Source of the DNA: Escherichia coli
GTDB lineage: Bacteria > Pseudomonadota > Gammaproteobacteria > Enterobacterales > Enterobacteriaceae
DNA: 64,000 bases
Assembly: GCF_013315695.1 (NCBI RefSeq)
Contig: NZ_CP054354.1
Direction: 5' to 3' (one strand)
The notes below the pieces were generated by a model. The model saw only the letters and a program-made list of their open reading frames with translations. It did no database searches and was not told where the DNA came from. Position numbers and translations under genes: made by a program. Shown piece after piece: positions 23,790 to 64,000 of the stretch; positions within the stretch are counted from its first letter, which is position 1, and every line of letters starts with the position of its first letter.

Positions 23790-23800
23790 AATAAACCTCC

Positions 23801-26042: not shown

Positions 26043-26116
26043 GGTAACTCCGGAACCGAAGGGGATGCCCGGGCATCAGCCCCCGGAATGAGGAAAAGAA
26101 ATTGCAGACCGGACAG

Positions 26117-32822: not shown

Positions 32823-32845
32823 CGGTTTCCCGGTGCCTTTGCGGA

Positions 32846-33244: not shown

Positions 33245-33290
33245 AGTGTCTCCTTTATTAACAGATTGATTTACTGAAAAAATACAGGGG

Positions 33291-35865: not shown

Positions 35866-35868
35866 GAT

Positions 35869-36843: not shown

Positions 36844-36853
36844 GATATGAGTC

Positions 36854-37549: not shown

Positions 37550-37560
37550 GGTGCTCCTGT

Positions 37561-37911
37561 TCAGAGGTTGTAGTCTTTCCAGGGGTCGATATTCCCCGGA
37601 AGATGGTCATTCACCCGATCCACGACGGCATCACAGACCTGGTTTTCCAGGTCGCGGAGGAGCTTGTCCAGGCTGGGGAACTGCGGAAGAGTGATACTGA
37701 TGTCCTTGATGCGGGACAGGCAGGACTGCAGGGAGGAGGCGACGTCATTCTCCCGCTGTGACCATGCCTGGCTGGCTGTGCGCGCCCGCTCCCAGGCGGC
37801 TCTGCTGCCGGCTTCGGCAGCGGCCCCCGCCCGGCAGGTGGCGGCACCTGCCACCGGTGATGCCAGGGTGATGCCGGTCAGTATGACCAGCAGCGTTTTT
37901 TTCATGTTCAT
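37561..37911 (-). CDS. traL: TraL-like small secreted protein
   Basis: Start moved to internal MNMKKTLLVILTGITLASPVAGA (signal peptide); ORF track 37561..38082. Confidence 0.45.
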   Translation of the reverse strand: MNMKKTLLVILTGITLASPVAGAATCRAGAAAEAGSRAAWERARTASQAWSQRENDVASSLQSCLSRIKDISITLPQFPSLDKLLRDLENQVCDAVVDRVNDHLPGNIDPWKDYNL

Positions 37912-37927
37912 GGTCGTCCTTACCGGC

Positions 37928-47464: not shown

Positions 47465-48850
47465 CTAGCTGGCTTTAACAATGTAGTTGAATGCAATGTT
47501 TTTGGGACGCATTTCTGTGGTACTCCCCTGTGCCCAGTATGGCATACCACTATGATGCCCTTTCAGCCATCCGCCACGTTCGTGATAGACGCCTGATTGA
47601 TCGGCCTGATAACTCAGGAGCTGTCTGTTCCGATCACCATCAAGTCCCTTCCCGTTATCCCAGCCACGGATAAAAACACCGCGCAGATCGGGTAACTTAC
47701 AGCTAGGATAAGCACGGGCAAGCTGAGGATACCGGGAACAGGAAAACGACTGGCCGTTCATCAACAGATAGCCTTGTGGAGGAGTGGCAGATGGCCACGG
47801 GATAGGGCTTCCCACAGGGTAGGATTCAAAGCCAACCCACACACCGGATTGGCACGAAAGTATTGCCCCTTTGCTGTCGCGGCCTACAAGTCCATCTGGT
47901 GAACACTTTGTATTTGCTACGGCTGTTTTATCCAGCTGTAAATACTCACCTGTGGAAAGGCGACCGTCAGACCGGACTGTCCCCCCACTGACTTTTCCTC
48001 CTTTGATTTCCCCTGTGGTTATAATTCCTTTACCACCGACTGCGCGTATCCACTGGCTGTCTGTCATCGTAAAACCGCCACCATAGGTGATGTTCTTCCA
48101 GCCTTTATCATTTTTGGTGATTAACCAGCCGTTTTCGCTTGTAACATCACCTTTCAGTGTTGCACTTTGTCCATTGACGTTTCCTGCATTGTTCAGGTTG
48201 TTCCCTCCCATATTGATGGCCGTGTTCATCTGGTTCAGCTCCGGTCGTCCCGGTACCTGAAAGCGATACAGGCGATCGCTTTCCTGCAGGTCATCCCCCA
48301 TCATTACGATGGCGATGTGCCCGCCATTGCAGCTGAGTCCATAGTCGCCGGGTTTATCTGTCCATCCACCAAAAACACCGGTTGCTGTGCCATTTTTTCC
48401 TATAAATCCGCCCAGACCGGGGAGCAGGCTGGCGATACTGCGCAGGGCATCGTCTTTGATATTCTCCCCTCCGGTGGAGCAGGTCAGGGCCTCCAGACGA
48501 CCGGTACTCGTGTTACGACGGATGCCGGTGGTATAACTCTGCCCAAAGGGCGAGCGGTTAAGACCCTTCAGATATCCTTTCCGGATTAACTCATCCGCCG
48601 TGAAGGTGGCAGGAAGCGTTCCGCTATGCAGGCGGGCATTGTTATCGGCGATGTAGGTCCTGGCTGCAGTATTGTAGGCATCTGCATGAAATGCGGCGCT
48701 CTGGTTGCGCATTTCATTCAGGTAGTCTTCAATGTAAGACCAGAACAGCGGCATGAGCAGGCTGATGACAACCAGTCCTCCCAGAATTTCAAGAAGTGCA
48801 AAACCTTTATCGTTGTCTTTTTGCATAGTCGTTCCCTCCGGTATTACCAA
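47465..48850 (-). CDS. pilV: PilV-like minor pilin / tip adhesin
   Basis: 461 aa; prepilin-like KG|FALLEILGG with Glu at +5; Gly-rich; C-terminal region resembles a phage tail-collar/fibre-type domain. Confidence 0.7.
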   Translation of the reverse strand: MVIPEGTTMQKDNDKGFALLEILGGLVVISLLMPLFWSYIEDYLNEMRNQSAAFHADAYNTAARTYIADNNARLHSGTLPATFTADELIRKGYLKGLNRSPFGQSYTTGIRRNTSTGRLEALTCSTGGENIKDDALRSIASLLPGLGGFIGKNGTATGVFGGWTDKPGDYGLSCNGGHIAIVMMGDDLQESDRLYRFQVPGRPELNQMNTAINMGGNNLNNAGNVNGQSATLKGDVTSENGWLITKNDKGWKNITYGGGFTMTDSQWIRAVGGKGIITTGEIKGGKVSGGTVRSDGRLSTGEYLQLDKTAVANTKCSPDGLVGRDSKGAILSCQSGVWVGFESYPVGSPIPWPSATPPQGYLLMNGQSFSCSRYPQLARAYPSCKLPDLRGVFIRGWDNGKGLDGDRNRQLLSYQADQSGVYHERGGWLKGHHSGMPYWAQGSTTEMRPKNIAFNYIVKAS

Positions 48851-49470
48851 AGGCCACCGGGATAAAAAGTAAATGCGTACTGTGACGCGCAGAGAAACGG
48901 CCCAAAGGGAAGTTCTCTGGTAATGCGTCGTTGTCTGTTACACCACAGATAAAGTAAGGCTCCGCCTGCTGCCGTTGCGACAATCCAGGGGATGTCTCCC
49001 GGCGGGGACCAGATGGCAATACCGGCAATCAGAAAAACATCGCCCAGGCCTATGGTTTCTGTTTTCCTGCGGTAAGAGGTGTATTGCCTGAACAGAAGCA
49101 ACAGCAGGAACCAGAACCCTGCACTGCACAGGCCTGTCAGCCAGTCTCCCTGCCAGAGACGAAATGCGCTGCCGCTTATCAGATACATGATGGTGAAGGG
49201 CCGGGGAAGACGGCAGGATGCAGCATCCGTCAGGGTCATCAGTGTCATACATCCGGTCATTATCGTCATAAACAGCACCCCGACAGCGCTGTCATTCTGA
49301 TAAAGACGCAGGATAATGGCGGCAGCTGCAAGCATCCCGCTCATCAGCGCCAGCCCATGGTGAGGGGGGCGGGCATTCATCCGGGAGAGTCGATAGCGAC
49401 TCATCTGAACGGCCAGACACTGTATTACCACGGTTATGGCGACCAGCAGTGCCGGGATTATCTGGAGCAT
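48844..49470 (-). CDS. pilU: PilU-like prepilin peptidase
   Basis: 208 aa; polytopic membrane protein; position after pilT. Confidence 0.7.
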   Translation of the reverse strand: MLQIIPALLVAITVVIQCLAVQMSRYRLSRMNARPPHHGLALMSGMLAAAAIILRLYQNDSAVGVLFMTIMTGCMTLMTLTDAASCRLPRPFTIMYLISGSAFRLWQGDWLTGLCSAGFWFLLLLLFRQYTSYRRKTETIGLGDVFLIAGIAIWSPPGDIPWIVATAAGGALLYLWCNRQRRITRELPFGPFLCASQYAFTFYPGGLW

Positions 49471-49485
49471 GGCAGTTCTCCCGGA

Positions 49486-49971
49486 CTAACGTCCCTGCAT
49501 GTAAGCGCTGTAAATCTGCCGGGCGTATTTCATCCGGCGGTGAGTGTTACTTTTACTGAAGCCGGCGTTATAACTGCCGAGGCATTCCCAGTTTACGCCG
49601 CATCGCTGAAAATGCCGGGCGAGGATCCATGCTCCGGTCTGAATATTCAGGCAGACATTATTCAACAGATCTTTCTCACTCCGGATAATGCCCATTTTTT
49701 TCAGCCCGGGAATATGTGTGGAGTTAATCTGCATTATCCCGTAATCGGTACTGATAATTTTCCCACTGTCATTCCTGTTATGATTAATGGCCCGGGGATT
49801 CAGACTGCTTTCCCTGCGGGCAATAATTTTGAGTAATCCTGGATCAATGGAATAACGTTTTCCGGCGGTAATAAAACAACGATCATATTGTTTGTCCTGT
49901 GGGGATGCCTGTGCGGAAGGAAGTGAGCATAACAGTGAAAAAATCACTGTCAGGATAAATAACCTGTTCAT
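49486..49971 (-). CDS. pilT: PilT-like lytic transglycosylase
   Basis: 161 aa; signal peptide; SLT-like ...ARRESSLNPRAIN... and GIMQIN. Confidence 0.75.
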   Translation of the reverse strand: MNRLFILTVIFSLLCSLPSAQASPQDKQYDRCFITAGKRYSIDPGLLKIIARRESSLNPRAINHNRNDSGKIISTDYGIMQINSTHIPGLKKMGIIRSEKDLLNNVCLNIQTGAWILARHFQRCGVNWECLGSYNAGFSKSNTHRRMKYARQIYSAYMQGR

Positions 49972-50015
49972 ACAGTGACCTTAAATAAAGCGCCCGGGCG
50001 GGCGCTGATGAATGA

Positions 50016-50552
50016 TTAACTGTTGGTTTCCAGTTTGATAGTAGTTTTATCTGCGTTACATACTGTAGACGGGTCAACTTTATTCGTCACATTGCCGTTG
50101 ATTTTTGTAAACATGGATGAACTGCGCAGGCTGGTGACCAGATCAATACAGTTTTTCTTCGGCACATTGCTGGATTCAATAACGTAGGAGTATTTATCTG
50201 AACTGACTTTGATGGTTACCGCACCACCCCAGGCATTTTTCGCCTTATTACCACCGGCGATCATATCGGCAGGCAGGCCACCACTTTCGGTCAGGATTTT
50301 GACGTAGTCAGTACCTGTATACTGCCCCTGGAATTTTTGGGCTTTCATTTTGGTGGCGATTGTCTGCAGGTTTTTGAGTTCCTTCTGGTTGTCTGAAGAG
50401 GACAGGGTATCGGACATCAGTCCCATCACGGCACCAATAACAATGGCAGCGACGACCAGAACACCGAGAACTTCCAGCAGGGTCATGCCTTTATCATCGT
50501 TCTGAAGGTGACGAATATTATGTTCTGAATACGAAGAGGTTATGACGCTCAT
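50016..50552 (-). CDS. pilS: PilS-like type IVb major prepilin
   Basis: 178 aa; long leader then G|MTLLEVLGVLVV with Glu at +5. Confidence 0.8.
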   Translation of the reverse strand: MSVITSSYSEHNIRHLQNDDKGMTLLEVLGVLVVAAIVIGAVMGLMSDTLSSSDNQKELKNLQTIATKMKAQKFQGQYTGTDYVKILTESGGLPADMIAGGNKAKNAWGGAVTIKVSSDKYSYVIESSNVPKKNCIDLVTSLRSSSMFTKINGNVTNKVDPSTVCNADKTTIKLETNS

Positions 50553-50613
50553 ATTAGCTCCTGAGATTGGTAAAACAGAATTTGGATCGAGGGGAATATA
50601 AAGGATGCTGTGT

Positions 50614-51708
50614 TTACTGCTTCAGCATGTCACTGATGCCGTAAATGGCACTGACCATATTGATGATGAAGAGAAATACCAGCAGACCTGATATAGCAGT
50701 AATAATAATGCCGCTTTTTCTGACATTCTTTTTTGCTTCTTCCAGCCAGCGGTCTGCATAAAGCGCCATACTGGCAACACTGTCCTCCCTTTCTGAATTT
50801 AAAAGAAGATTATTCACACAGGATTTTGACGGAAAGTCATAACCACAGTTTTTCATGGCCAGTGCCAGTGACTGACCGGATAAGACATTTTTTCTGATAG
50901 CACTTATTCGTGATTTTAACCATCGGTTATGTTCTGCATGTTTTTCTATTCTGGTAAGGGCATGAGATAAAGGAATATTTATCTGCAGCATGGATGAAAT
51001 ATTAAAAAGGTAATTCACGCCATGGAAAGTCTGATACAGGGACCATGGCGGGATGCGATCAAGATACCGTCGTCGGGGACCGGTATACAGACTGAATGAC
51101 ATCCTGATGAGAATTGCCAGCAGCAGCAGTCCTGCCAGCAGCCACAAACCATAACCGATAACCAGTCCGGAGGATTTGGCCAGAATGACCATCTGTACTG
51201 ACCAGCGTTCTTCCGGTGCAAAGGCGCTGATCATCGGAATAACCCGGGTATGAACGTTATACATATTCACCACACAGAGTGTCAGCAGGATGAGCGGATA
51301 GAGGCAGACACTCACCAGACTGCTAATCATCTCCTGTCGTCCTTTTGCCGTTTTGACGACCTGAAACATGGCTTCAGCGATATCACCTCGTTCTTCACCG
51401 TTACGGATCAGGGCAATTTCATCTTTGGGTACCCAGTCCTTCAGGGCCGGAGAGAGCTGACCACTGCTGCGTATGCTGGCGATACAGTCTGTCGCCAGAA
51501 AATACAGGCCGGACTGCCCTTTCTTTTTACCAAAATCCGTTTCCACATCGCAGATGAACTCCAGTGCCCGCATAACCGGTGTGCCGTCCCGGATCATGCC
51601 TGCAAGGGACTCGTAAAACGTAGTCCGCCTGAACGTCTTTTTGCCCAGCCAGCGGTTAAGGCCGGACAGTTCCAGTTCCGTATTGTTGAGTCTTTCCAGA
51701 ATTTTCAT
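50614..51708 (-). CDS. pilR: PilR-like inner-membrane platform protein (GspF/PilC family)
   Basis: 364 aa; polytopic; follows the ATPase gene. Confidence 0.75.
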   Translation of the reverse strand: MKILERLNNTELELSGLNRWLGKKTFRRTTFYESLAGMIRDGTPVMRALEFICDVETDFGKKKGQSGLYFLATDCIASIRSSGQLSPALKDWVPKDEIALIRNGEERGDIAEAMFQVVKTAKGRQEMISSLVSVCLYPLILLTLCVVNMYNVHTRVIPMISAFAPEERWSVQMVILAKSSGLVIGYGLWLLAGLLLLAILIRMSFSLYTGPRRRYLDRIPPWSLYQTFHGVNYLFNISSMLQINIPLSHALTRIEKHAEHNRWLKSRISAIRKNVLSGQSLALAMKNCGYDFPSKSCVNNLLLNSEREDSVASMALYADRWLEEAKKNVRKSGIIITAISGLLVFLFIINMVSAIYGISDMLKQ

Positions 51709-51709
51709 A

Positions 51710-53218
51710 TCAGTGCAGCAGCGTATAGCTGTCCTCGTCTACAGGGGATATGTAATGCGCAGCCAGCGGATCGACCTGACCACTGTTGATTTTGCCCAGC
51801 AGGTGCTGATTTCGTGTCATACCGCCGAGCTCCCGGTGCCAGTAGGTTTTTGCCTCAATCCGGCCTTTTTCCCGGTAAATCTGGAAAAACTTCGCATCCG
51901 GGGAAATCACTTCTGCAATGACGGTCCGGCCGTTCACTCCACGCCAGCAGTGTGGGCAGCCGTTATGGTTACGAAGATACACGGCATCGGGCTGGCAGAA
52001 GTTTTCCACCAGGCGTCGTTCTTCATCCGTCCGGGAGCTCTCCACCTCATGCCAGGGGAGGCGGCAGTGGGGACATATCACCTGAACCAGACGCTGGCTG
52101 AGCAGGCCGATAAATAACTGCGGATCTGCAATCATCCTTGCCTGAACGCCCTCCATTTCCAGACGCTCAAGAATATTTATCGGGTCGTTAGCATGAAGGG
52201 TGGTCAGCATCAGGTGACCGGTCATGGCGGCTTTTATCGCCGTGATGGCGGAGGCATGGTCACGTATCTCCCCGTTCAGGATAGCGTCAGGATCAAGGCG
52301 CAGGGCGGACTTAACAGAATCGACCCAGCCCTGAGCGGTATCCATAACGGCCGTCTGAATTGCACCGGGGATACGCCCCTCTGGTGGTGATTCTATTGTG
52401 AACAGACGTCGCCGGGGGAGCAGGATCCCTCCGGTATCGTTGAAGCCATACTGTTCCAGATAGGCGGCAGAAGCCGTCCTCAGCGTGGTGGATTTTCCGG
52501 AACCGGTGGGGCCAGAGAGGATCACGATGCCCTCCGGTCGCTGCAGCATCCTTCGGACAGCGCGCTCCTGCTCAGGGTGATACCCCAGCATACTGAATGT
52601 CGGTATATGCTGACTGTCATCCTTGATCAGACGCAGTACGGCATAGAGTCCGCCCACACACGGATAGTGGGAGTAGCGCGCACCAAACAGTCCGGCCAGT
52701 TTCAGGAATCTTTCAGCCAGACGGGCATCCTGGGGGACACCGGGATCAAACTGTGTTCCCTTTATGACGTCAGTCATTCCGGAATAGGTGGCCCCCAGTA
52801 ATTCCAGCCCCTCATCTTTTCTGACGATATCGAGCAGCTCCAGCTCTCCGTGGACACGGGCCTCCAGATACGTGAAATCCGTACTGTCACGCCCCGGCGT
52901 GATGTGAAGATCTGAGGCGCTGAGGGTGGCCGCATGGCTGATATACCCGAGCATTTTTTGCTGTACGGGGTTAATTCCGTTTTCCACCCCGGAAATGACC
53001 GTCTCCTGCCTGAGTCGGGCGATCACATCAAGTGTGGTGAACTCAAACGGGGATACTTTACCCGGATAACGGGAGCACAGGCGGGTCAGATAATCCTGGA
53101 CGGCACGAAGGTGTTTTTTTCCTTCCACCACTCTGACATGAATTTGTCCTGTTTTATCTGTATCAACAACCACGTATTCCAGAATGTCATCAGGTGGCTG
53201 GTCTGCAGGTGCCAGCAT
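51710..53218 (-). CDS. pilQ: PilQ-like pilus assembly ATPase (GspE family)
   Basis: 502 aa; Walker A SGPTGSGKST; tetracysteine CPHC...CPHC. Confidence 0.85.
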   Translation of the reverse strand: MLAPADQPPDDILEYVVVDTDKTGQIHVRVVEGKKHLRAVQDYLTRLCSRYPGKVSPFEFTTLDVIARLRQETVISGVENGINPVQQKMLGYISHAATLSASDLHITPGRDSTDFTYLEARVHGELELLDIVRKDEGLELLGATYSGMTDVIKGTQFDPGVPQDARLAERFLKLAGLFGARYSHYPCVGGLYAVLRLIKDDSQHIPTFSMLGYHPEQERAVRRMLQRPEGIVILSGPTGSGKSTTLRTASAAYLEQYGFNDTGGILLPRRRLFTIESPPEGRIPGAIQTAVMDTAQGWVDSVKSALRLDPDAILNGEIRDHASAITAIKAAMTGHLMLTTLHANDPINILERLEMEGVQARMIADPQLFIGLLSQRLVQVICPHCRLPWHEVESSRTDEERRLVENFCQPDAVYLRNHNGCPHCWRGVNGRTVIAEVISPDAKFFQIYREKGRIEAKTYWHRELGGMTRNQHLLGKINSGQVDPLAAHYISPVDEDSYTLLH

Positions 53219-53320
53219 AAAATCTCCTTACGGGCAGCGGTACCCGGAAACGTTTTTTTTGTGATTAAGGGCCGGGGGAATAATCTGTTCCGACAGCCGG
53301 CTGTAAATGGCGGCACTGAG

Positions 53321-53779
53321 TCAGGGTTGTAGTGTTGTTCTGATACCATTTTGTTCAAGGACAACACTGTCAGTGGTGATCTTTTCCACGCGGAATGTGG
53401 TGCCGGGAATGTGTTGCCCTTCTTTTACATCAGCAGTTTGTCCGCCCGGCAGTTGTATCCTGGCGGTTATCTGGGGGTGAACTCCGGATATCTCTGTCAG
53501 CCGGGGAATACCGGTAATGGGGGCAGGGGTATCTGTCGTGACGGCTGAACTGCTTTCCTGTGAATGCACAGGCTCAGCTGGTTCTCCCTGCTCCAGGGTT
53601 CTGAGTTCATGTCGCACCTTTTCTCTTGCCAGCATGGCTTCATACAGTGCAGTTTCTTCCTGAATCTGTTCCACCTGGAGTTGCCGGTTATTCTGTTGCA
53701 TGTTGCTGATGGTGCTGGCCGCGACCGTTGTCGGCAGGATCAGGACGGAAAGCAGAAGAGCTTTTGTTTTACTGGACAT
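53321..53779 (-). CDS. pilP: PilP-like protein
   Basis: 152 aa; signal peptide; position. Confidence 0.55.
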   Translation of the reverse strand: MSSKTKALLLSVLILPTTVAASTISNMQQNNRQLQVEQIQEETALYEAMLAREKVRHELRTLEQGEPAEPVHSQESSSAVTTDTPAPITGIPRLTEISGVHPQITARIQLPGGQTADVKEGQHIPGTTFRVEKITTDSVVLEQNGIRTTLQP

Positions 53780-55064
53780 AATATTTACCTGTGAATTGAT
53801 AACGGAAACGACCCTCTTCCAGTTGCCTTGTTACGGAGATAAAACGGACGGAGGGTTCACTGAAATGCTCTGCCACCTGGTGCGCCGGAAGTGTCGTCAG
53901 TATCTGCAGGTCATACTCCTTCCAGGGGGGCTGGATGGTATTTCCGTCTTCATCGGTGAAGCTGTTGCTGACTTCCTGCCAGTCCATTTTCAGCTGCATC
54001 GACCGGGCGAGTGTGGTCAGCCGTTCCTGCAGGAGGGTGTTTTCCGGTAATGCCTCAACGGCAACGGGAGTTTCAGGCATACTGAAGGTGACCGGCAGGG
54101 CAAAACCACCGCTATTCCCGTCCGGCATAACCATAAACGGCCGGATGCTGAAAATTTCCCTGACCCGCTGGCTGAATGCGGTCACTGTCGTCCCGGCGAT
54201 GTTTGTATATGATGCACGCAGATTGCCGCTGTTCCCGGTGGCAGCACACTCGGCGAGTGAATATCGCCAGCCGGCGACCGACACCGGCAGGCGTGACCAT
54301 ACGTCACTGCATCCCCGGATAAAATCTCCGGTTTCCGGCATACTCAGCCACGGTGGTGTGATCCGTTCCTCTGCGGCTTTTTGTGCCGCTTCAGCAAGTG
54401 CTGCTTTTTCTGCCTTCAGGCGTTCATAGTACTGCCAGCCATACCATGCAGTACCCAGAAGGGTGAGTATGAGTAATACCGGAATAAGCTGTGGCCCACG
54501 GGATACGGGGTGAAGGCGTGCTTCTGCCGGATATTTCCCTGCACCTGTCAGGGTTTCCAGTGGCAGGGGACCTCTGCCGTCAGGCCCGTTAAACGAGGGC
54601 GGTTCATAACATGTCCAGCCGTGTTCAGGCGCGCTGTTAATGGTGAGGAATATTTCCCGGGCCTCCCTGATTTCCTCCCGGGTTCCCACCAGGTCACTGA
54701 CCAGGATGCCGTCAACAGCAGAAACAAAACCATAAAGTTCTGTATCGTTTGCCTGTGACAGTTCAACGATAGCGTATCCTCCTGGCTCGAGCAGAGGCAG
54801 GATAAGCATGGCGAGAGAGAAATACCTGCGGCTGCCTTTGGGGAGTGTATTCTGGCTGACGGCTGCAACCATGATGTGACGATCGGTATCTTCCGTACTG
54901 AGATACTCACAGGAAATATAGCGTACTGCCCCCAGACTGCGGGCAAACGTCCGGGGGTTTTTATGGCTTGCGGGCAGTGTTTTCCAGTCCATTCCGGCAA
55001 GAAATACATTCCGTCCTGCCGTCAGCGGAAACACCTGTCGCTCTGTCGGTGAAATATCTGTCAC
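53769..55064 (-). CDS. pilO: PilO-like protein
   Basis: 431 aa; position between secretin gene and pilP. Confidence 0.6.
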   Translation of the reverse strand: MTDISPTERQVFPLTAGRNVFLAGMDWKTLPASHKNPRTFARSLGAVRYISCEYLSTEDTDRHIMVAAVSQNTLPKGSRRYFSLAMLILPLLEPGGYAIVELSQANDTELYGFVSAVDGILVSDLVGTREEIREAREIFLTINSAPEHGWTCYEPPSFNGPDGRGPLPLETLTGAGKYPAEARLHPVSRGPQLIPVLLILTLLGTAWYGWQYYERLKAEKAALAEAAQKAAEERITPPWLSMPETGDFIRGCSDVWSRLPVSVAGWRYSLAECAATGNSGNLRASYTNIAGTTVTAFSQRVREIFSIRPFMVMPDGNSGGFALPVTFSMPETPVAVEALPENTLLQERLTTLARSMQLKMDWQEVSNSFTDEDGNTIQPPWKEYDLQILTTLPAHQVAEHFSEPSVRFISVTRQLEEGRFRYQFTGKYYVQ

Positions 55065-55084
55065 GATAGTCCTCCTTCTGCAAA

Positions 55085-56704
55085 TCAGATGATATTGGGC
55101 GTGATCAGCACCACGAGAATGGTGTCGTCGTTTTCACTGTTGATCCCACCGCCAAGACCGAAGAATCCCGGTGTGCCGACACCCTGTTTTCCACTGCGAC
55201 GCCCTGACTGCTGGAAGCCACTGATAATGACTGTCTGCCCGGATTTCAGGTCCACTGTCTGGTTGATGGTTTTCAGATCCACATTCGGCAGCTGGGCTTT
55301 GCTTCCACCACTCTCGTAATTCTCAATAACCGGTTTGTCGGAGAGACTCATGGAATAGAGCAGCTGCAGTGTCTGTGAGTCCGGGAGAATGAACGGCAGA
55401 AGGGTCATATTAAAACCGGTGGTGATGGTGGCCGCATTCAGGGAGGTGGATGAGCCGACATTGGCGGTGGTATCCGTCGTCACACTCTCAATGTAGCTCT
55501 GCTGATTGGCAATCTGCATCGGTACCGGGGTCAGGTTTTTGGTCACGGCGGAATTCCGGGTTACCACACTGACATCTCCCTGGGAAGAGAGTGCTTTCAG
55601 GAAGGCTTTTGAACCGGTGAGTTTCCCGTTCACAATGGAAACACCACCAGTGACGGTATCGCTGGCTGCACTGGTGAATGTGCTGCCGAGGCTCAGTCCC
55701 AGCGTTCTGTCGCTGAAGACTGCGTTCCAGTCGATACCTGCCTGCTCATTACGGGTTTTCCGGATACTCAGAATTTCCACATTCAGCACCACCTGGCGCT
55801 TCATTTCTTCATTGCGTTTTTCAATGAACGTCCGGACCGTTTCCAGTACCTGTGGGGTGTCCGTGACGGTGATAAAGCCCGTCGACATGAACATGCGACC
55901 AATACCCGGCGTCAGCATTGATGAGACAGCATTTTTCACATCCTGATACAGCGCAGATTTCATATCCACGGTGGTGGTCTGGGTATTACTGGCATCACCG
56001 GAAATGGCATCCGATGCTGTTCCACCTGATGAGCCATTTGATGACATGGTACCGCTGACCACGGTGGCATTATAGGCAACCTGGCTGTCCATATAGGTCA
56101 CCGGGAAGGTCCGGGTATCAAGATAATAGAACGTGATATGTGAACCATCATAACGCCAGGAAATCCCGAGACGGGAAGCGACCGCATTCAGCAGTGATGT
56201 CAGTCCTGAAGCCTTCAGTTCAGGAAGTGACGCCGTATTTCCCTGCAGGCGGGGAAGTGTCGTGTCAGAACTGCCTATGGCGGCCAGTGGAACCATACCG
56301 CCGGTATCCGGCGGTGGTACTGTGCCCTGGATTTGCTGCGTACTGCCGGAGGTGGTCACGCTCAGATACGCCTGTACATCAGGGGTGATCCTTACAGGAA
56401 TATGACAGTTTTGCGAGATCCGCTGGGCCACCTGCTGAAGGGTGATGCTCTGCCGGGTGTTAATGATAATCGGACAGCCGGGCACCGCATTACCGGGGTT
56501 TTTATCCGTGACCGGACGGGGATTGATCCACTGACGTGGGGATTCCTTTACAACCGGTGTCCGGTTTCGCAGCTCAGCGATCATTTCCCGGGCCCGTTGT
56601 TGTTCAGCAACGGCGTCTTTTCTGGTGTTCTCTGCCTGTCGGAAACTGGTACAGCCCTGCAGCAGAGTGGCTGCAATCATAATAGCAAGAAGTTTTTTGT
56701 TCAT
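55085..56704 (-). CDS. pilN: PilN-like secretin lipoprotein
   Basis: 539 aa; lipobox LLQGC; C-terminal secretin-like domain. Confidence 0.75.
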   Translation of the reverse strand: MNKKLLAIMIAATLLQGCTSFRQAENTRKDAVAEQQRAREMIAELRNRTPVVKESPRQWINPRPVTDKNPGNAVPGCPIIINTRQSITLQQVAQRISQNCHIPVRITPDVQAYLSVTTSGSTQQIQGTVPPPDTGGMVPLAAIGSSDTTLPRLQGNTASLPELKASGLTSLLNAVASRLGISWRYDGSHITFYYLDTRTFPVTYMDSQVAYNATVVSGTMSSNGSSGGTASDAISGDASNTQTTTVDMKSALYQDVKNAVSSMLTPGIGRMFMSTGFITVTDTPQVLETVRTFIEKRNEEMKRQVVLNVEILSIRKTRNEQAGIDWNAVFSDRTLGLSLGSTFTSAASDTVTGGVSIVNGKLTGSKAFLKALSSQGDVSVVTRNSAVTKNLTPVPMQIANQQSYIESVTTDTTANVGSSTSLNAATITTGFNMTLLPFILPDSQTLQLLYSMSLSDKPVIENYESGGSKAQLPNVDLKTINQTVDLKSGQTVIISGFQQSGRRSGKQGVGTPGFFGLGGGINSENDDTILVVLITPNII

Positions 56705-56735
56705 AGATAAATCCGTGAGTTATTCAGAGTCCGGC

Positions 56736-57173
56736 CTAATTCATCCAGATGATGACCTGATCGGGGATCACAGCAGGGAGCGTGATGGAAATACGCCGCC
56801 CACGGGTGTCCAGGAGGCGACCGTTTTCCACTCTGGCAAGCAGGGCCGAATCACCACTTTGTTCCAGGAGGGCACCCATAAGGCCGGGTTTTTCTTTTGC
56901 CCAGACAAAAACGCGCTGCTGACTGATGAGGTGGCTGACGTTTTTCGTGGCGGGCAGACCGAGCTGTGCTGACGTGAGCTGACCACCGGCAGCACGTCGT
57001 TCAGGGTGCTGATACAGGTAATCGTTGATGGCATTCATATAACGAATAAAGTCTGCAGCCTGCTGTGTGATTTCAGCGGTCTGCTGATGGTGCACAGTAC
57101 GGCTGAGGTGACTGTGGAACCAGAAATTACCAATGGCCATAATGACCATAATGAAACCCGTAACCCATCCCAT
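56736..57173 (-). CDS. pilM: PilM-like inner-membrane protein
   Basis: 145 aa; single N-terminal TM segment. Confidence 0.55.
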   Translation of the reverse strand: MGWVTGFIMVIMAIGNFWFHSHLSRTVHHQQTAEITQQAADFIRYMNAINDYLYQHPERRAAGGQLTSAQLGLPATKNVSHLISQQRVFVWAKEKPGLMGALLEQSGDSALLARVENGRLLDTRGRRISITLPAVIPDQVIIWMN

Positions 57174-57176
57174 AGG

Positions 57177-58247
57177 TTATTCCTGCGGGCGGTCTGTCAC
57201 ACGGAGCAGGCATTGTGCAGTGCTGGTCCGGGCATACAGCGGTTTTTCAGCCGGGGTATAGAGTGCAAAGAGCTGCTCCAGCGCCTGGCGGAAACTGCCG
57301 GTGAAAACCAGAGGGGCATCGATGCTGTAGTTGACAGGTGTTTCCCAGCGCAGTGTCCATGTGCCGTGCGGGCATTTTTCGGATGATGTCCAGCGGGCCA
57401 GTCCGTCTTTCAGGGTGGTCCCCTTTTCCATTTTCCACTGCCGTGGCGGTATGACCTTCTGCTGTGGTGGCACTACCGGTTTCGTGGCCACCGGGGCTGG
57501 CGTGGTTGTTCTGCTCTCTGGAGTTCCGGATCTCCCGGTGGTGGTCTGAGCCCGGGAAACGCTGACGGCAGGTGTCACTGGTGTCGGGCCTGCCGGCGTT
57601 GCGGCGCTGCCCCTGAACGGATTACGCGGTGTATCAGCAGCTTTCTGTGAACCCTGCGGTGCCGTGACGTCGACCGGCGGTGTTGCAGAGGTCGTGACAG
57701 TCAGTATTTTCCTGTTCCAGTCCATATGTCCGTAAAGCTGCTGGCCGGCCAGCAGCGCATTCAGTGCCCGGTGCCACTGGTCATTAACGGACCAGACGGG
57801 GAGGCGTTTGTTCAGTGCCGGTATGGCAGCGTTCTGTTGCCGGAACTGCCAGCCGGGTGGTAGCAACTGGCGTATCCAGTCACTGACGGAGCGCTGATGT
57901 GCCTCACGTAAATAAACGACGGATGACTGACCGGGTTTACCGGTCATAACCAGTGCGGGCAGCTGTGTGGCCTGAAGGAGCGGACGGGGAGGCAGTGCGG
58001 TACTCTGGCTGCTGACTGCGGTTGTGGGCGTCGCTGTTGTTGTCGGGCGGGGCGGCGTCACAGGGCGGGTCACCGGTGGCGGAAGCAGACGTTTTTGCGT
58101 ATGGGCGATAATGGCAGCGCTTTCGCGAATTTGTCCGTCGACGAACACCAGAGCCGGAGGCGTGGTGTCAGGAACAGGCGTGGCATTAAATGCCGTACAG
58201 CCGCTGAGTAATGACGGCAGAAGGAGTGTAAGTGATTTCTTTTTCAT
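57177..58247 (-). CDS. pilL: PilL-like lipoprotein (TcpQ-like C-terminal domain)
   Basis: 356 aa; lipobox LLSGC; Pro/Thr-rich linker; first gene of pil operon. Confidence 0.7.
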   Translation of the reverse strand: MKKKSLTLLLPSLLSGCTAFNATPVPDTTPPALVFVDGQIRESAAIIAHTQKRLLPPPVTRPVTPPRPTTTATPTTAVSSQSTALPPRPLLQATQLPALVMTGKPGQSSVVYLREAHQRSVSDWIRQLLPPGWQFRQQNAAIPALNKRLPVWSVNDQWHRALNALLAGQQLYGHMDWNRKILTVTTSATPPVDVTAPQGSQKAADTPRNPFRGSAATPAGPTPVTPAVSVSRAQTTTGRSGTPESRTTTPAPVATKPVVPPQQKVIPPRQWKMEKGTTLKDGLARWTSSEKCPHGTWTLRWETPVNYSIDAPLVFTGSFRQALEQLFALYTPAEKPLYARTSTAQCLLRVTDRPQE

Positions 58248-58473
58248 AGAATAAATCCGGTATGTATCGGGTTACGGTATAAGACAGGTGGCTGGTAACA
58301 GGTCTTCAGATAAATATAATTTCATCAGGATATTGATGATGAACATTCATGTTCGGGGTGATTATGAAAACTAAAATATTCCGGTTCCGGAAATATAAAA
58401 AGAAAAACGTCCTGCTGCAAATGATAGTTTCCAGAAAACAAGTGATATTGTTTTTCAGAACTGGAACATTATT

Positions 58474-58809
58474 TTATTTCTTGCCTGTTATTGAAACATG
58501 TCCGGTTATGATCTCCGAATGGCAGGTATCAATAAAATCACTTTTCCCCGATTGTGTGTCAAAGTCAACGTGGGTGAATCTGTGTACATCCTGCCATATG
58601 GTGAAACAGACAGGACAGGTAACAGGTAGTTTACCTTCAGCTATTTTTTCGCAGCTTTCAACCAGTTGCTGCGCCTTGTTGTATCTGACGTTATAGCCAT
58701 TTGTGCAAAGCGTTTCATACCCATGAGCTCCTGTAACTATATGTGTGGCGATTCTTTCGTGGACTCTCCCATTAATTAATAATTGTTCACGTGTTGTGAT
58801 TGTTCTCAT
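58474..58809 (-). CDS. hypothetical protein with CxxC motif, 111 aa
   Basis: ORF in AT-rich stretch; ...CPVCFTIW... Confidence 0.35.
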   Translation of the reverse strand: MRTITTREQLLINGRVHERIATHIVTGAHGYETLCTNGYNVRYNKAQQLVESCEKIAEGKLPVTCPVCFTIWQDVHRFTHVDFDTQSGKSDFIDTCHSEIITGHVSITGKK

Positions 58810-58924
58810 GCCTGTTTCTCAATTGGTCATAACAGAAAATAATCTGCATTCCTGAAAAATATCGCGGTTGTGAAATATTTAATTTTTACCCCCTTTTATG
58901 GGGGATGAAAAGCAGGCTGTCAGG

Positions 58925-59167
58925 CTATAACTGAACGCGGTTTCTGGATTTTGGTGCTAATGTCACATCTTTCCATTCACAGCTGCTTCCGGGAATACGC
59001 TCTTTGCGTCGTATTATACGGGAGTTCTGACACACAATAATTAAGCCATTGTCTGCCGTCTGAAATGGCATTATAGCGATGTTTATATCTTCTGTTGCAG
59101 GAATATAACTGACTTTCTTTTCACATGTATTGGTGTATATGACAACTCTGAATTTTTCTGCGGACAT
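58925..59167 (-). CDS. hypothetical small protein
   Basis: Internal start MSAEKFRVVIY... of ORF 58925..59242; AT-rich stretch. Confidence 0.3.
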   Translation of the reverse strand: MSAEKFRVVIYTNTCEKKVSYIPATEDINIAIMPFQTADNGLIIVCQNSRIIRRKERIPGSSCEWKDVTLAPKSRNRVQL

Positions 59168-59247
59168 TTTCAATCCTCTTTTAAACCAGAATATCCCGTG
59201 AGGGCATTCTTTGTGAAAAAGATGCCGGAAAAATTCCGGCACGGGGA

Positions 59248-60942
59248 TTAAACCTGTTGTGGTTCTGAGTTATCCGGAGCGGTTACCGGTTCGCTGACAT
59301 CCGGAACCTTTTCCGGGGCAGGCATGACCAGTGGACGTGTCAGGGCTGTAAGTCCTTCACCGGATAAACCCACCTCTTTCAGCAGGGAGTCGATGAGCGG
59401 AGCCTGTGTACGGTAAGCCAGAGCGGCGGTTACTGCCTGTTCAGCGAGATTTCCGCCACTTATGTCGGTTGTTGCTGTTTTACCGCGGGTAACACCGCCA
59501 TTCAGACCATCCACCTGAATGATTTTAATACCGTCAATGGATTTCATTGGTTCTGTGGACTTCTCTATGACGGCAGGTAATGCATCCAGCAGGGCAAGAC
59601 GGAAGCGGAGGCTGGTCTGCTCATCCGAAAGCACGTTAATGGCATCGTTCAGTGCGCGCTGTGCTTCTGCTTCTGCCAGACCTTTCTGACGGGTGGCCTC
59701 CGCCAGTTCAATAATTGCTGCTGCCTGGAGTTCGGCTGCTTCTTTTTCAGCCTGTGCGCGAACCGTCAGTTCAACCGCTTTCGTTTCAGCTTCCTGAGCA
59801 GCAGCAATCAGGGCAACCTGTTTGGTACGGTCGGCCTCCGCAGTCTGGCGGGTGGTTTCCACATCCTGCTGGGCCTGTACGGCCTCAGCCAGTGCTTTAC
59901 TTGCCCGGGCTTCTGCCTGTGACTGCTCTTCCGATTTTGCCGCCACGGCAATGGCTCTGGCCTGGCTGGCGATTTCGGTTGCCTGCTGTTGCTCAATTTC
60001 CCGTATGGCCACTTCCCGTTCGGCTTCGACCTGGCGGGTACGCACTATCTGCTGTCGTTCGATTTCGGCTTCCTCTATCTTACGTTCAGCCAGAATTCGC
60101 GCGGATTCTGCTTCACGACGTCGTTCAGCTTCAATAGCAGCAATACTGGCACTCTGCTCTGCCGTACGGGTTTTTACCCGTTGTTGTTGCTCCAGAGTCA
60201 TGAAGGCTTCCTGCTGTTCAATCTCCAGACGTCGGGAGAGTGCATCCCGGTTTTTTTCCCTGATGGCCACTTCAACATCCTGCTCAACTTCGTTGCGTTC
60301 GCGACGACGACGTTCTGTTTCCTGGGTCAGAAGGGTCAGGCCTTCAGCATCAAAGGCATTGTCAGGATTAAAATGTACCCGTGCAGTCTGGTTGAAACTT
60401 GTCAGCGACACACTTTCAAGCTCCAGACCGTTTTTGGATAAGTCTTCCGCAACGGTGTTCTGCACACCCTGAACAAAGTTCTCGCGGGCATCCTGTAAAT
60501 CCTGCATGCTCATTCTGGCCGCCGTGGCCCGTAGGGCATCAACAAATTTATCCTCGACCAGACTACGCAGATCTTCAGGTGTGAGCGTGCGTTGTCCCAG
60601 CGTCTGGGCTGCAGTGGATATTCCTTCGGCTGATGGTTTTACCCGAAGAAAAAAGGCAACGGCAACATCAACACGCATGCGGTCGCGGGTTATGAGACTT
60701 TCAGCCGCTGCACGACTGACTTCCAGCTTCAGGGTGTTCATGTTGACGGGAATTGTTTCGTGAAAAATGGGCATAACAATTGCACCGCCACTCATTACCA
60801 CTTTTTGGCCTCCCAGACCTGTGCGGACAAAGGCCTGCTCTGCCGATGCCCGGCGGTACAGGCGGGCAAATATCAGCCCGATAACGAACAGGGTGAGGAC
60901 CAGCGCTATAACGGTAAACAACCATCCCGGAAGATTAAACAT
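59248..60942 (-). CDS. yqiK: flotillin-like SPFH-domain protein (YqiK-like)
   Basis: 564 aa; N-terminal TM, SPFH region, long Ala/Glu/Gln/Arg coiled coil. Confidence 0.7.
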   Translation of the reverse strand: MFNLPGWLFTVIALVLTLFVIGLIFARLYRRASAEQAFVRTGLGGQKVVMSGGAIVMPIFHETIPVNMNTLKLEVSRAAAESLITRDRMRVDVAVAFFLRVKPSAEGISTAAQTLGQRTLTPEDLRSLVEDKFVDALRATAARMSMQDLQDARENFVQGVQNTVAEDLSKNGLELESVSLTSFNQTARVHFNPDNAFDAEGLTLLTQETERRRRERNEVEQDVEVAIREKNRDALSRRLEIEQQEAFMTLEQQQRVKTRTAEQSASIAAIEAERRREAESARILAERKIEEAEIERQQIVRTRQVEAEREVAIREIEQQQATEIASQARAIAVAAKSEEQSQAEARASKALAEAVQAQQDVETTRQTAEADRTKQVALIAAAQEAETKAVELTVRAQAEKEAAELQAAAIIELAEATRQKGLAEAEAQRALNDAINVLSDEQTSLRFRLALLDALPAVIEKSTEPMKSIDGIKIIQVDGLNGGVTRGKTATTDISGGNLAEQAVTAALAYRTQAPLIDSLLKEVGLSGEGLTALTRPLVMPAPEKVPDVSEPVTAPDNSEPQQV

Positions 60943-60968
60943 AGTGAGAACCTCTGTATATGTCGGGA

Positions 60969-61589
60969 TTAAAGAACATCCGGCCAGGGATTCAGTTCGC
61001 CCAGCCAGCGGGAACCGGAAAGACGGCAGACAATAATCACTTTGTCTCCTCGTCTGAATTCTTTCCCGGCCTCCGGCTCCAGCAACAGGTAATGAACCTG
61101 CCCGAAGCGGTCTGTGAAGCGACCTTCACAGGGGGAACCCGCCACTGCGTGATAACCAGTGATGGTGGCCATACAGCCGATGAATGCCTCCTCGGTGAGC
61201 GCCGTTGTTTCATCACGGGGTAACCAGGGGGCAATCAGTCTGCCGGTGCGGTGTACGAGAGGACATGTCAGCAGCAGGCAAAGTGGTGCAAGGAGAATGT
61301 TCGGAGCAGGAGCCTGCAGCAGATGAATAATAAGACCCTGCAGGAGAATGCCGGATATACCAAAAAAACCTGCCAGCATACAGAGGACGATCAGCAGGGG
61401 GATCCGTCCGATGTTCAGCCAGTCCAGCGCCTCTCCTGTCAGACCCTCCGGTAAATCAGGTGTATCCATAGCTGAAGAGAGGGAGTGTCCGCAGAGCAGG
61501 GCGATAAGTTCAGCGATACCAGTAAGCAGAACAAAAGTCAGGGCTGCCAGATAGGGTGCGTTATACGCGGTAAGTAACGTCAGTGTCAT
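60969..61589 (-). CDS. yqiJ: NfeD-like membrane protein (YqiJ-like)
   Basis: 206 aa; multiple TM segments; immediately upstream of the flotillin gene, the conserved NfeD-SPFH pairing. Confidence 0.6.
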   Translation of the reverse strand: MTLTLLTAYNAPYLAALTFVLLTGIAELIALLCGHSLSSAMDTPDLPEGLTGEALDWLNIGRIPLLIVLCMLAGFFGISGILLQGLIIHLLQAPAPNILLAPLCLLLTCPLVHRTGRLIAPWLPRDETTALTEEAFIGCMATITGYHAVAGSPCEGRFTDRFGQVHYLLLEPEAGKEFRRGDKVIIVCRLSGSRWLGELNPWPDVL

Positions 61590-61855
61590 TTTTCCTCCTG
61601 TGGCAGGTCAGTCAAACAACATTATGGCGTGAAGCTTCCGCTTCTTTAATTGTCAGAAGAAGCATATCGTCAGTCATCAGAAGACAAGGGGATGTCTGCA
61701 GGAGGGGATGATAACAACAGAAGCCTCACGCCGGAATGCGCTTTATGACAACCGGAGAGGACGGATAATCAAAAATGGGACATCCACATCAGCAAACCGC
61801 GATTTGCGAAAAAAAGTCAGCGGAGAGTGGCTGCCGTTGTGGCTGTCCCGGTATT

Positions 61856-62518
61856 TCAGTGTAAAAGCAGACTGTTGTCCATGCCCCATTCCTCTTCCGC
61901 TAAACCTGAATGGCCCACATGAAGAATGCGTGACAGCATATTTCTGCCGCTGCCGTTCAGACTGCATTCGCGCCCGTGTGCGAGCATAAAACCTTCATCC
62001 CGGAATATCTCTTCAACCTCAGACGTGTTGATGGTGGCCGGATGGATTAATGAAAATGCCACCGGTCTGATCATTCTGCCCGTGGTGGAAAAGGTGTCCC
62101 CGGTGCTGTTCAGCTGCAGGATATGACGTTTCCCGGTCTGTGCGCGGGAAAGTGTCTCACTCAGTAACTGGTCATTCCATGCGCACGTGCCAATCTGCCA
62201 TCCCAGACTCCTGCACGTGGCAAGAGCCGAGCGGAAGCGGTACAGGTCGTATAATGCTGCGTTATTGCCACTTTCCAGCAGTGATTTCAGGGTGTTTGCT
62301 ACCGGTATGTCTGAATTGGTGGCCAGCAGTTTTCGCAGGGTAGTGAACTCTTCAGCCATTCCTCTGAACTCGCGCATCTGACGGGCAGTGTCAAGCCAGT
62401 TCAGCAGGTAACGCCGGCGACGCCGTTCGTTGTTTATGTTGTCCGGGGCGGTGGAGAGTGCTTCGAGCATATTCTCCAGTAACAGAATGACAGGGTTTTC
62501 CTGGGATAGAATGGTCAT
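61856..62518 (-). CDS. hypothetical protein, 220 aa
   Basis: ORF only. Confidence 0.4.
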   Translation of the reverse strand: MTILSQENPVILLLENMLEALSTAPDNINNERRRRRYLLNWLDTARQMREFRGMAEEFTTLRKLLATNSDIPVANTLKSLLESGNNAALYDLYRFRSALATCRSLGWQIGTCAWNDQLLSETLSRAQTGKRHILQLNSTGDTFSTTGRMIRPVAFSLIHPATINTSEVEEIFRDEGFMLAHGRECSLNGSGRNMLSRILHVGHSGLAEEEWGMDNSLLLH

Positions 62519-62658
62519 AAAGGCGTCCTGAAAAAATGCCCGACAGCCGCTCTCCGTACACCCTCAGGTGTCACCGGTGCCGGGCATTGTGGAAACAGAA
62601 GGGAAAAAAATCCCGGCCATAAAGGCCGGGAAAAGTCGTCAAATTAAGACAGCAATTT

Positions 62659-63300
62659 TCATGTCAACGCTCCGTCATCAGATACCAGGTGCAGGAGCAG
62701 GGCGATCCTCGACTCCGGCAGAGGCTGTGCATCAAGCCGGAGGAGGTACTGGTAACGCGCTTTTGTCAGCCAGAGGGTGGAGGCAGCATCCAGCTCCTCC
62801 CTGGCTGCCGGATTGAGCGCAGGATCCGGGTACACTTTCATCAAAGACTGAACGATATCCTCCCTGACGGTTTTGATTTCACCGGCCATTTTCACGAAGT
62901 CCAGAAAGGCACTGTGACGGCGAAGGTGAGTGAAGCTGTGGCTTTCGGGGTCTGCTTTCAGGAAAAAGTAACCGGGAAACACGGCGTGTATATGTCGACG
63001 GTAACCACAGACTTTATCCGTGCGGCGGACCTTTTTCAGTATCAGGGGTGTCCAGGGAAGGACGTGTTGTTCGGAAAGCCAGGAAAAGAGATGTTCGCGG
63101 TTTTTGCCGGCAGGGATGTACTGTGCCAGATACCAGTTGCGTTGATGTAATTCACTGATATTCAAAATCCGGAACGCTCCGCGAAAATCGATCCCCGCAG
63201 GGGGGCTTCGATGTTGTTGTGAACGGCGAATACATAAAGCATGTGTCGGAAACAGCGGCTGACCCACGTTCAGCCTGGCCTGCAGTTCTGACAGGCACAT
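62659..63300 (-). CDS. NusG/RfaH-family (NGN-domain) protein, ActX-like candidate
   Basis: 213 aa; WYLAQYIPAGKNREHLFSWLSEQ...HAVFPGYFFLKADPE resembles the NGN domain; lies at the head of the long minus-strand transfer block. Confidence 0.45.
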   Translation of the reverse strand: MCLSELQARLNVGQPLFPTHALCIRRSQQHRSPPAGIDFRGAFRILNISELHQRNWYLAQYIPAGKNREHLFSWLSEQHVLPWTPLILKKVRRTDKVCGYRRHIHAVFPGYFFLKADPESHSFTHLRRHSAFLDFVKMAGEIKTVREDIVQSLMKVYPDPALNPAAREELDAASTLWLTKARYQYLLRLDAQPLPESRIALLLHLVSDDGALT

Positions 63301-63437
63301 GATTTACGCACTCTTGTAAGCCTTGTGGACGGTTTCGAGGCGGGCGAAAACCGACAACTCCTGCAAACAGGATTAATGGCTGGAAAATATATCACATAAG
63401 GATGTATCTGTGGCAAGAGCGAAGATAAGCAGTTGAA

Positions 63438-63700
63438 TAGATCGTTATATTTGATAAGACAGAATATTATTCTGTATTTGATGTTGTGTGCGGGATATTA
63501 GATCGTTTAAAAAAATTCGGCGATCTCTTCTACTGGAAAAGAAGAAAAAAGCAGCATAAAAGATCGTTTGTGAAATTGTTCATTTTTTTGACAGAGTTCA
63601 AAAAAACGACGCTTTTTAGGGGGTTAAAGAGGGCAACTGTAACTCTGAGAAATCGTGTCGGCTTTTCAAAGCGGTGGAAAAGGGGTATATTGCGGATCGT
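63438..63700. promoter_or_regulatory. four (A/G)GATCGTT motifs, the first three spaced 60-61 bp apart
   Basis: GATC at 63440, 63501, 63561 and 63695 each followed by GTT; AT-rich region upstream of the NusG-like gene. Confidence 0.3.
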
Positions 63701-64000
63701 TATTCAGTGGCTTTTGGGATCCTCGCGGTCCGGAAAGCCAGAAAACGGCAGAATGCGCCATAAGGCATTCAGGACGTATGGCAGAAACGACGGCAGTTTG
63801 CCGGTGCCGGAAGGCTGAAAAAAGTTTCAGAAGACCATAAAGGAAAACCCCCACTATTTTTCCTCGAACTTGGCGGAACGCAGAAAAATAATGGGGGCCT
63901 CACAGAATACGGGATAAGTATATATGAAACCGTACCAGAGATTCAACCCTGTGCAGTGTATAAATACACGGCACAATCGCTCCGCCATAAGCGACAGCTT

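Follow-up and report, generated by a model that had tools for sequence, protein, structure and literature searches.

A candidate opsX-like loading site and a conserved terminator on either side of traB, the NusG-family gene at the head of an I-complex plasmid transfer region

What does a small NusG-family gene do at the head of a long run of pilus and transfer genes? We address this question for traB, which lies on the minus strand of a 64,000-nucleotide (nt) stretch of Escherichia coli DNA (RefSeq assembly GCF_013315695.1, contig NZ_CP054354.1), referred to below as the window. A preliminary description of the window had proposed that the gene encodes an RfaH-like activator dedicated to the pil and tra genes that follow it. 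In the reading that we favor, to which we give a probability of about 0.6, TraB is an operon-specific RfaH-type elongation factor that loads at a hairpin (HP1) and an adjacent motif, CGCGGAGCG, in the leader of its own gene, and reads through a terminator into traC and, to some extent, into the pil and tra genes. Both traB and the likeness of its product to NusG are already known from the literature and from RefSeq annotation, and the identification is therefore not new.

The segment at 61400..64000 matches 1,882 plasmid records and is 100% identical in DNA to many plasmids of E. coli, Shigella, Klebsiella, and Citrobacter (typed IncI1/B/O, MOBP, MPF_I). The RefSeq coding sequence at 62659..63165, WP_001335626.1, is named NusG-family protein. 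A homologue with 64-65% protein identity is located between the annotated TraA and TraC genes of pCol1B9 (Salmonella SL1344) and of a pESI-like plasmid, and for this reason we assign the window gene as traB. Taken with the traB-traC-pil synteny beside the replicon of an MPF_I/MOBP plasmid, this orthology identifies it, by homology and gene order, as the traB of an I-complex (IncI1/B/O-type) conjugative plasmid. Searches with tblastn place TraB homologues in 2,419 plasmid records, of which about 546, at ≥95% identity, represent the lineage of the window and about 1,441, near 65% identity, represent classical IncI1 plasmids; smaller groups extend down to 25-30% identity (IncX and others). The gene sits in the divergent region that separates the replicon from the transfer genes. 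As the preliminary description had it, traB heads the pil-tra block, since the open reading frame (ORF) map and the annotation of an identical plasmid give a minus-strand gene run that is unbroken from 63165 to about 21276 (~42 kb). The order is the NusG-family gene, a 220-amino-acid gene, a YqiJ-like/flotillin pair, pilI, pilL-pilV, the shufflon region, and the tra genes, with everything from the YqiJ-like/flotillin pair onward (21276..61589, minus) forming the presumed target block.

Published genetics on orthologues bear on the proposed activator role. The TraB of pESI has been noted as NusG-like, and deletion of traB lowers pilV expression about 4-fold, also lowers that of pilS and pilT, and renders transfer undetectable (PMC5013300). 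Transposon-directed insertion sequencing of the I-complex plasmid pMS7163B shows that traBC is required for conjugation (PMC10286972). A 2020 paper had already put forward antitermination of tra operons by plasmid NusG paralogues (PMC7593976), and PrfaH of IncX3 plasmids is an antiterminator that depends on an ops (operon polarity suppressor) element (PMC11880322). The same 2025 paper names R64 TraB as a PrfaH homologue and assigns to the IncI complex 45% of the 3,212 plasmids that have annotated nusG-family genes (PMC11880322). An RfaH-like activator of pil and tra is thus borne out by the requirement for the orthologues in pil transcription and conjugation, by the position of the gene at the operon head, and by the fold of its product.

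This fold is supported by several methods. The Pfam NusG model (PF02357) matches TraB with an independent E-value of 8.8e-5 over model positions 2-92 of 93, and is the only Pfam match. Among NCBIfam models, only RfaH, LoaP, and NusG match at E≤1; the RfaH model TIGR01955 gives E 7.6e-10 and 39 bits, under its 144.5-bit cutoff, and NF006534 gives 38.9 bits against a cutoff of 124, so that TraB scores below the level set for an RfaH equivalog. A sequence search of the PDB returns IncX3 PrfaH (9ik0, E 1.8e-7) followed by E. coli RfaH (E 4.5e-4). Judged from these matches, the similarity of TraB to NusG-type proteins is far beyond chance. An AlphaFold model built with 31 homologues (mean predicted local distance difference test score, pLDDT, 82; predicted template modeling score, pTM, 0.79) does show an NGN alpha/beta domain, followed by three helices. 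Foldseek matches this model with probability 1.0 to the NGN domains of RfaH and NusG, its top hits being autoinhibited RfaH (5ond, 2oug, 8pib; 5ond E 7.8e-10) and PrfaH; against the three autoinhibited RfaH structures, 154 columns are aligned with TM scores of 0.73-0.78, values that compare a prediction with experiment. The NGN-like segment noticed earlier is therefore upheld by Pfam, NCBIfam, PDB, and AlphaFold/Foldseek searches alike, and TraB has the NGN domain of the NusG/Spt5 superfamily. Its C-terminus, as had also been noticed, does not resemble a canonical KOW domain: it is predicted to form three helices, lacks the KOW glycines, and ends about 12 residues short of RfaH. No Pfam KOW match is found there, and the KOW beta-barrel of the superfamily is accordingly not recognized. 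Across the 31 homologues, the RNA polymerase-binding motif FPGYFF and residues W11 and Y12 are invariant or nearly so.

The boundaries of the gene need revision. The 213-codon ORF at 62659..63300 (minus) is present and contains WYLAQY...FPGYFFLKADPE, as described, but its start codon at 63300 is wrong, the conserved start being a TTG at 63165 that yields a protein of 168 amino acids. All homologues start at the aligned M-N-I position, using ATG, GTG, or TTG, and in 9 of 12 other lineages the frame is closed by a stop codon 9-69 nt upstream of the homologous start. Moreover, gene calls that are extended upstream translate the same conserved DNA in differing frames (GIDSGGTL versus GDRFWWNV). 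Together, these observations indicate that the 45-codon extension at 63166..63300 (135 nt) is noncoding and belongs to the traB leader. The coding sequence at 62659..63165 (minus) then comprises the NGN domain and a short, all-helical C-terminal domain.

We compared the sequences preceding traB across 12 lineages with a TraB protein identity of only 48-65%. The best-conserved stretch directly precedes the start codon and has two parts. The first is HP1 (63187..63212, minus; AUCGAAGCCCCCCUGCGGGGAUCGAU), found at the homologous place in all 12 lineages, with a stem of 8-12 base pairs, an invariant GGAT in the 3' arm, and a 5' arm that varies in step with the 3' arm. Folding each 5' arm with its own partner gives -10.9 kcal/mol compared with -7.1 kcal/mol for swapped arms, a difference that none of 20,000 permutations equals, and three or four pair types occur at several stem positions. 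The GGAT goes beyond the requirements of pairing alone. We regard HP1 as a candidate for a nascent-RNA pause hairpin or for a contact in the upstream duplex.

The second part, 2-4 nt after HP1, is an ops-like 12-mer, TCGCGGAGCGTT (63173..63184, minus), whose core CGCGGAGCG at 63183..63175 fits YGCGNAGCR with the layout C-GCG-G-AGC-G, then GTT. GCG-N(1-2)-AGC is kept in 11 of the 12 lineages at 3-13 nt before the start codon. The twelfth (L011) has GTGGAAC, which we do not count as strong covariation because, while complementary, it is not predicted to be stable as DNA. The motif GCGG-AGCGT corresponds to the RfaH ops sequence GCGGTAGCGT without one loop base (T6), and under DNA folding parameters it folds at least as well as the ops sequences of E. 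coli and Bacteroides. Over the candidate TraB site, the non-template strand reads TTTCGCGGAGCGTTCC. In these leaders, the end of HP1 lies 10-14 nt ahead of the T equivalent to the ops pause position. The opsX element of Bacteroides spans about 40 nt, and consists of a region encoding a pause hairpin that reaches -12..-9 and then a non-template hairpin, 5'-YGCGNAGCR (PMC11685472). HP1 with YGCGNAGCR has this same composite organization, a likeness of the site and not a sign that the protein belongs to the UpxY family. We therefore propose CGCGGAGCG as a candidate non-template-strand DNA mini-hairpin at which TraB may load and polymerase may pause. Our searches of the accessible literature returned no description of the putative opsX-like leader, or of the conserved traB terminator described below, for IncI plasmids.

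The earlier statement that no convincing ops-like element is present thus holds for the canonical RfaH ops, whereas the stretch 9-19 nt upstream of the true start does hold an ops-like element. The three intervals that had been singled out for scanning do not include the element at 63173..63184, and scanning them gave little: 62520..62660 contains the terminator plus a weak second hairpin with a T-run, in 61590..61860 the one feature is a GAAGC-GGAA-GCTTC hairpin that includes GCGGAAGC, and 58250..58470 has nothing comparable. The GAAGC-GGAA-GCTTC hairpin (61644..61631, minus), about 45 nt upstream of the YqiJ-like gene, superficially resembles a variant of the motif with a 2-nt loop, but it is likely a chance occurrence since it has no HP1-like partner. 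Searching the whole window for canonical ops with up to two mismatches gave 80 matches compared with about 54 expected, none of them in a minus-strand leader, and no exact copy of the 12-nt ops GGCGGTAGnnTG. The sole match with one mismatch, GGCGGGAGTATG (939..950, minus), falls in the leading region, on the strand opposite the plus-strand psi/ard-type genes, and probably arose by chance.

Conservation reaches about 170 nt upstream of traB. Beyond HP1 it includes a stem-loop of about 86 nt (63228..63313, minus) in which the blocks ACAAGAG..CATG pair with CATG..TATGTTCG; the ATG at 63300 belongs to one of these two mutually pairing CATG blocks, and so lies inside the conserved stem. Evidence for the leader structures, HP1 included, comes from a 5-sequence alignment, from independent folds, and from the arm-swap test. 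In RNAalifold analysis of the five leaders, 19 of 47 pairs of the long stem remain paired although both partners have changed. By pair counts, 85% of cells are paired compared with 33-40% when partners are slid by 1-3 columns, and the covariation score is reached by none of 500 shuffles. The same long-stem topology is predicted independently in 9-10 of 13 leaders. RNAalifold returned no structure from a MAFFT alignment of 13 sequences because the arms were misaligned. IncI1-type plasmids have two leader copies: the first precedes traB, and the other lies upstream of traA, with a start codon again following the motif by 10 nt. In our comparison set the second full copy is seen upstream of traA in locus L002 (188..370), followed by a 43-codon ORF, and a tandem duplicate of HP1 and the motif in L012 (3832..3851) is followed by a 20-codon ORF.

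On the other side of the gene, between the traB stop codon and traC, lies an intrinsic terminator (62604..62631, minus; hairpin 62631..62611), TCCCGGCC-TTTAT-GGCCGGGA followed by seven T residues, which is the best terminator-like site in a scan of the region. An equivalent GC-rich hairpin and T-run follows traB in 11 of 13 loci. Because the stems (CCCGGCC, CCCCCG, GCCCCT, CCTCCCG, and others) are unrelated in sequence, it is the feature and not the sequence that is conserved. A second, weaker hairpin with six T residues (62585..62531, minus) lies after the main terminator, just upstream of the traC start. The traC gene itself (61856..62518, minus; 220 amino acids) follows traB in all loci examined. 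Its product has no NCBIfam match at E≤1 and no Pfam match, even at E≤10, in the window. In a wider alignment, 33 of 50 sequences match Pfam DUF2913, mostly distant relatives of about 200 amino acids; among plasmid TraC proteins, one of 11 matches at E≤0.001 and three of 11 at E≤0.1. By these profile matches TraC is a distant DUF2913 relative. AlphaFold gives a confident two-domain model of TraC (pLDDT 92) with no informative PDB neighbor.

Our observations are the fold, the orthology, leader elements that are conserved and covary, and a conserved terminator. From these we infer a mechanism in which TraB binds at HP1 and CGCGGAGCG, polymerase pauses there, and the modified complex persists over up to 42 kb. 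Transcription would start somewhere upstream of 63313 and yield a structured leader of about 170 nt. On reaching the composite site, RNA polymerase would transcribe HP1 and then expose the non-template motif, and the TraB NGN domain would dock on the paused enzyme in the manner of RfaH (at ops), UpxY (at opsX), and PrfaH (at its ops-like site). Polymerase so modified would then pass the intrinsic terminator directly after traB, and this readthrough would switch on traC and, to some extent, the pil and tra genes. Because traB precedes the terminator and its targets follow it, downstream expression would be gated by accumulated TraB.

Several points weigh against this model. The RfaH residues that contact ops, K10, R16, H20, T72, and R73, are replaced in TraB by P18, H25, W29, H84, and S85 (PDB-search alignment), which means that site recognition by TraB must differ from that by RfaH, and the HTT gate-loop motif of RfaH is not conserved. 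RfaH works chiefly against pausing and Rho-dependent termination rather than against strong intrinsic terminators. The R64 transfer region comprises several operons, and a single 42-kb transcript is therefore unlikely. The motif overlaps the expected Shine-Dalgarno position (GGAG), and so could be conserved for translation. Taken by itself, the hairpin of the window does not exceed shuffled sequence in stability (z = 0.02), and hence the support for it is comparative. A consensus promoter scan of 63166-63840 on the minus strand found no promoter, and no convincing conserved promoter is seen. Finally, the block is 48-60% GC, which is not typical of DNA silenced by H-NS.

A possible alternative, although we think the odds are against it, is a two-step cascade in which TraB only passes the terminator after its own gene to permit synthesis of TraC, and TraC activates separate pil, tra, trb, and nik promoters. 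The conserved terminator stands exactly between traB and traC, and traC, itself required for conjugation, always follows traB. A cascade would also accommodate the further minus-strand terminator-like sites (59242..59222, 50006..49989, and 23103..23081) and the intergenic gaps within the block. The leader with its ops-like element occurs once; a leader profile matched a single site in the window and no site in the ~31 kb that make up the rest of a related plasmid. In hyper-transfer mutants of pESBL, nikB, which lies on the opposite strand, is upregulated together with traU and traC (PMC4288162). TraC, however, has no recognizable DNA-binding domain or informative structural neighbor, and RfaH-type factors normally stay on polymerase to the end of the operon. 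The drop in pilV, pilS, and pilT in the pESI traB deletion fits processive and cascade models equally.

We find it rather doubtful, and a little less probable than the cascade, that the conserved leader serves post-transcriptional control of traB, acting in translation initiation or mRNA stability or as the target of an antisense RNA or a ProQ/FinO-type protein, with TraB recruited elsewhere or without a specific sequence. The element does end 3-13 nt before the start codon and offers GGAG in many lineages, the traB start codons are weak (TTG in the window, GTG in pCol1B9), and each duplicated leader copy immediately precedes a start codon; the leader forms a long covarying RNA structure, and these plasmids encode a ProQ/FinO-family protein. 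Nevertheless, several lineages have GCGAAGC without a good Shine-Dalgarno sequence and still retain the hairpin pattern, in which the GCG/AGC stem is constant but the loop is of variable length. Non-template hairpins defined by experiment in two further NusG paralogue systems show a matching pattern, the invariant GGAT is more than an RNA stem would need, and the leader has no Rfam family, either at gathering thresholds or at E≤5.

That TraB is a degenerate NusG relative which has left the elongating polymerase and acts with TraC as a conventional promoter activator is very unlikely: the original description, as later papers cite it, speaks simply of "positive regulators" (Kim et al. 1993), and the C-terminal domain is truncated and the HTT motif lost, but the FPGYFF motif on the NGN surface, which in RfaH and NusG binds the beta' clamp helices, has been retained, the predicted fold matches autoinhibited RfaH over its 154 aligned columns, and promoter activation was tested and excluded for the homologue PrfaH (PMC11880322).

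Returning to TraB as an elongation factor, we tentatively extend the proposal, at well below even odds, to a two-protein antitermination module that differs from RfaH. Its parts would be a TraB whose C-terminus is perhaps permanently helical, a composite opsX-like loading site in the ~170-nt leader, and TraC as a cofactor or downstream effector. Membership of TraB and TraC in the UpxY and UpxZ families is not supported by Pfam or NCBIfam, on the assumption that both databases hold models for these families.

The surroundings of traB contain further features. A putative extended -10 sequence spotted by eye, TGATATATT (63394..63386), is not conserved. A perfect palindrome, ACAGAATAATATTCTGT (63477..63461, minus), lies about 300 nt upstream of traB and is common to lineages that lack traA (the window, L003, L005, and partly L011); in L009-L011 the base of HP1 likewise consists of its half-site CAGAAT/ATTCTG. 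Near it, in an AT-rich stretch (63440..63600), are three AACGATCT repeats with Dam GATC sites, and this palindrome and repeat region could be the operator for some regulator. Immediately upstream of the traB promoter region, Rfam matches at 63840..63988 to the PK-repZ pseudoknot of the repZ leader (plus strand, 189 bits) and to a CopA-like antisense RNA (minus strand, 41.6 bits, under the 60-bit gathering score) mark what is, on this annotation, the IncI replication-control region. Separate DUF2913 genes lie near the replicon in L008 (358..1447, beside a ProQ/FinO-family gene) and L011 (281..868), which suggests that DUF2913 proteins form a wider plasmid-regulatory family of which TraC is a diverged member. 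In L011 a flotillin (Band_7) gene stands beside this second DUF2913 gene. Between traC and pilI, the window has genes for a YqiJ-like/OB-fold membrane protein and a flotillin-family protein (59248..61589, minus), and the terminator-like site that follows this pair at 59242..59222 is strong. At the far end, the plus-strand interruption that ends the 42-kb run contains a match to sok antitoxin RNA of a hok/sok or pnd-type killer system (20832..20988, plus, 125 bits) and a weaker match to AgrB antisense RNA (17245..17332, minus, 47.7 bits).

Plasmids of the I complex rank among the commonest vehicles of extended-spectrum beta-lactamase and other resistance determinants in E. coli, Salmonella, and Shigella, and TraB homologues occur in more than 2,400 plasmid records. 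For the transfer of I-complex plasmids, traB is a master switch. What the present analysis adds is a map of cis-elements, comprising the true start codon, the structured leader, the opsX-like site, and the conserved terminator, which turns a "positive regulator" into a specific, testable mechanism and ties the regulators of enterobacterial plasmids to the mode of recruitment recently elucidated for Bacteroides UpxY. Were the two-protein module to prove true, multipartite recruitment of the opsX type would not be confined to Bacteroides, and a precise target would be available for blocking the transfer of a major family of resistance plasmids.

Among known systems, the TraB of R64, ColIb-P9, and pESI is the orthologue (64-65% identity), a genetically defined positive regulator required for transfer, with the same traB-terminator-traC-pil layout and leader elements. 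The window lineage differs from IncI1 plasmids in lacking traA and the second leader copy, and in having the YqiJ-like/flotillin pair where IncI1 has traD. PrfaH (IncX3) and ActX (R6K, IncX2) are plasmid-borne RfaH paralogues with about 28-30% identity to TraB over the NGN domain, PrfaH (9ik0) being its best PDB sequence match. Like traB, their genes stand first in a transfer operon, with a site in their own 5' untranslated region near the start codon and a terminator hairpin before the first target gene, and disruption of the stem-loop before IncX3 virB1 removes PrfaH dependence (PMC11880322). Antitermination has been demonstrated for PrfaH, whereas the candidate TraB site and terminator are known from sequence conservation. 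The sites themselves differ, being TCGGGGTCATCCGAGTCG in IncX3 and a hairpin with CGCGGAGCG in the traB leader; we re-found the published IncX3 site at -42..-25 of prfaH, a different sequence at an equivalent location. In IncX the system includes an H-NS-like silencer as partner, and the IncX3 locus examined has no annotated gene resembling TraC/DUF2913.

E. coli RfaH shares with TraB the NGN fold and, as modeled, a helical C-terminal domain packed as in the autoinhibited state, and it activates long, horizontally acquired operons. Its ops retains the loop base T6 that the traB motif lacks, and rfaH stands alone whereas traB lies inside its own target locus. LoaP of Bacillota, also a NusG paralogue, depends on a leader hairpin and overrides intrinsic terminators within long operons; its sequence match to TraB is weak (22 bits, cutoff 125) and, unlike TraB, it has a basic KOW domain and binds a UNCG RNA hairpin with both domains. 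UpxY of Bacteroides belongs to a different phylum and has a different C-terminal domain, and its small partner UpxZ is an inhibitor whereas TraC is required for activity. Nevertheless, UpxY and UpxZ, like TraB and TraC, are encoded by the first and second genes of their operon, and the composite site of about 40 nt, a pause-hairpin region followed by YGCGNAGCR, likewise lies in the leader of the paralogue's own gene.

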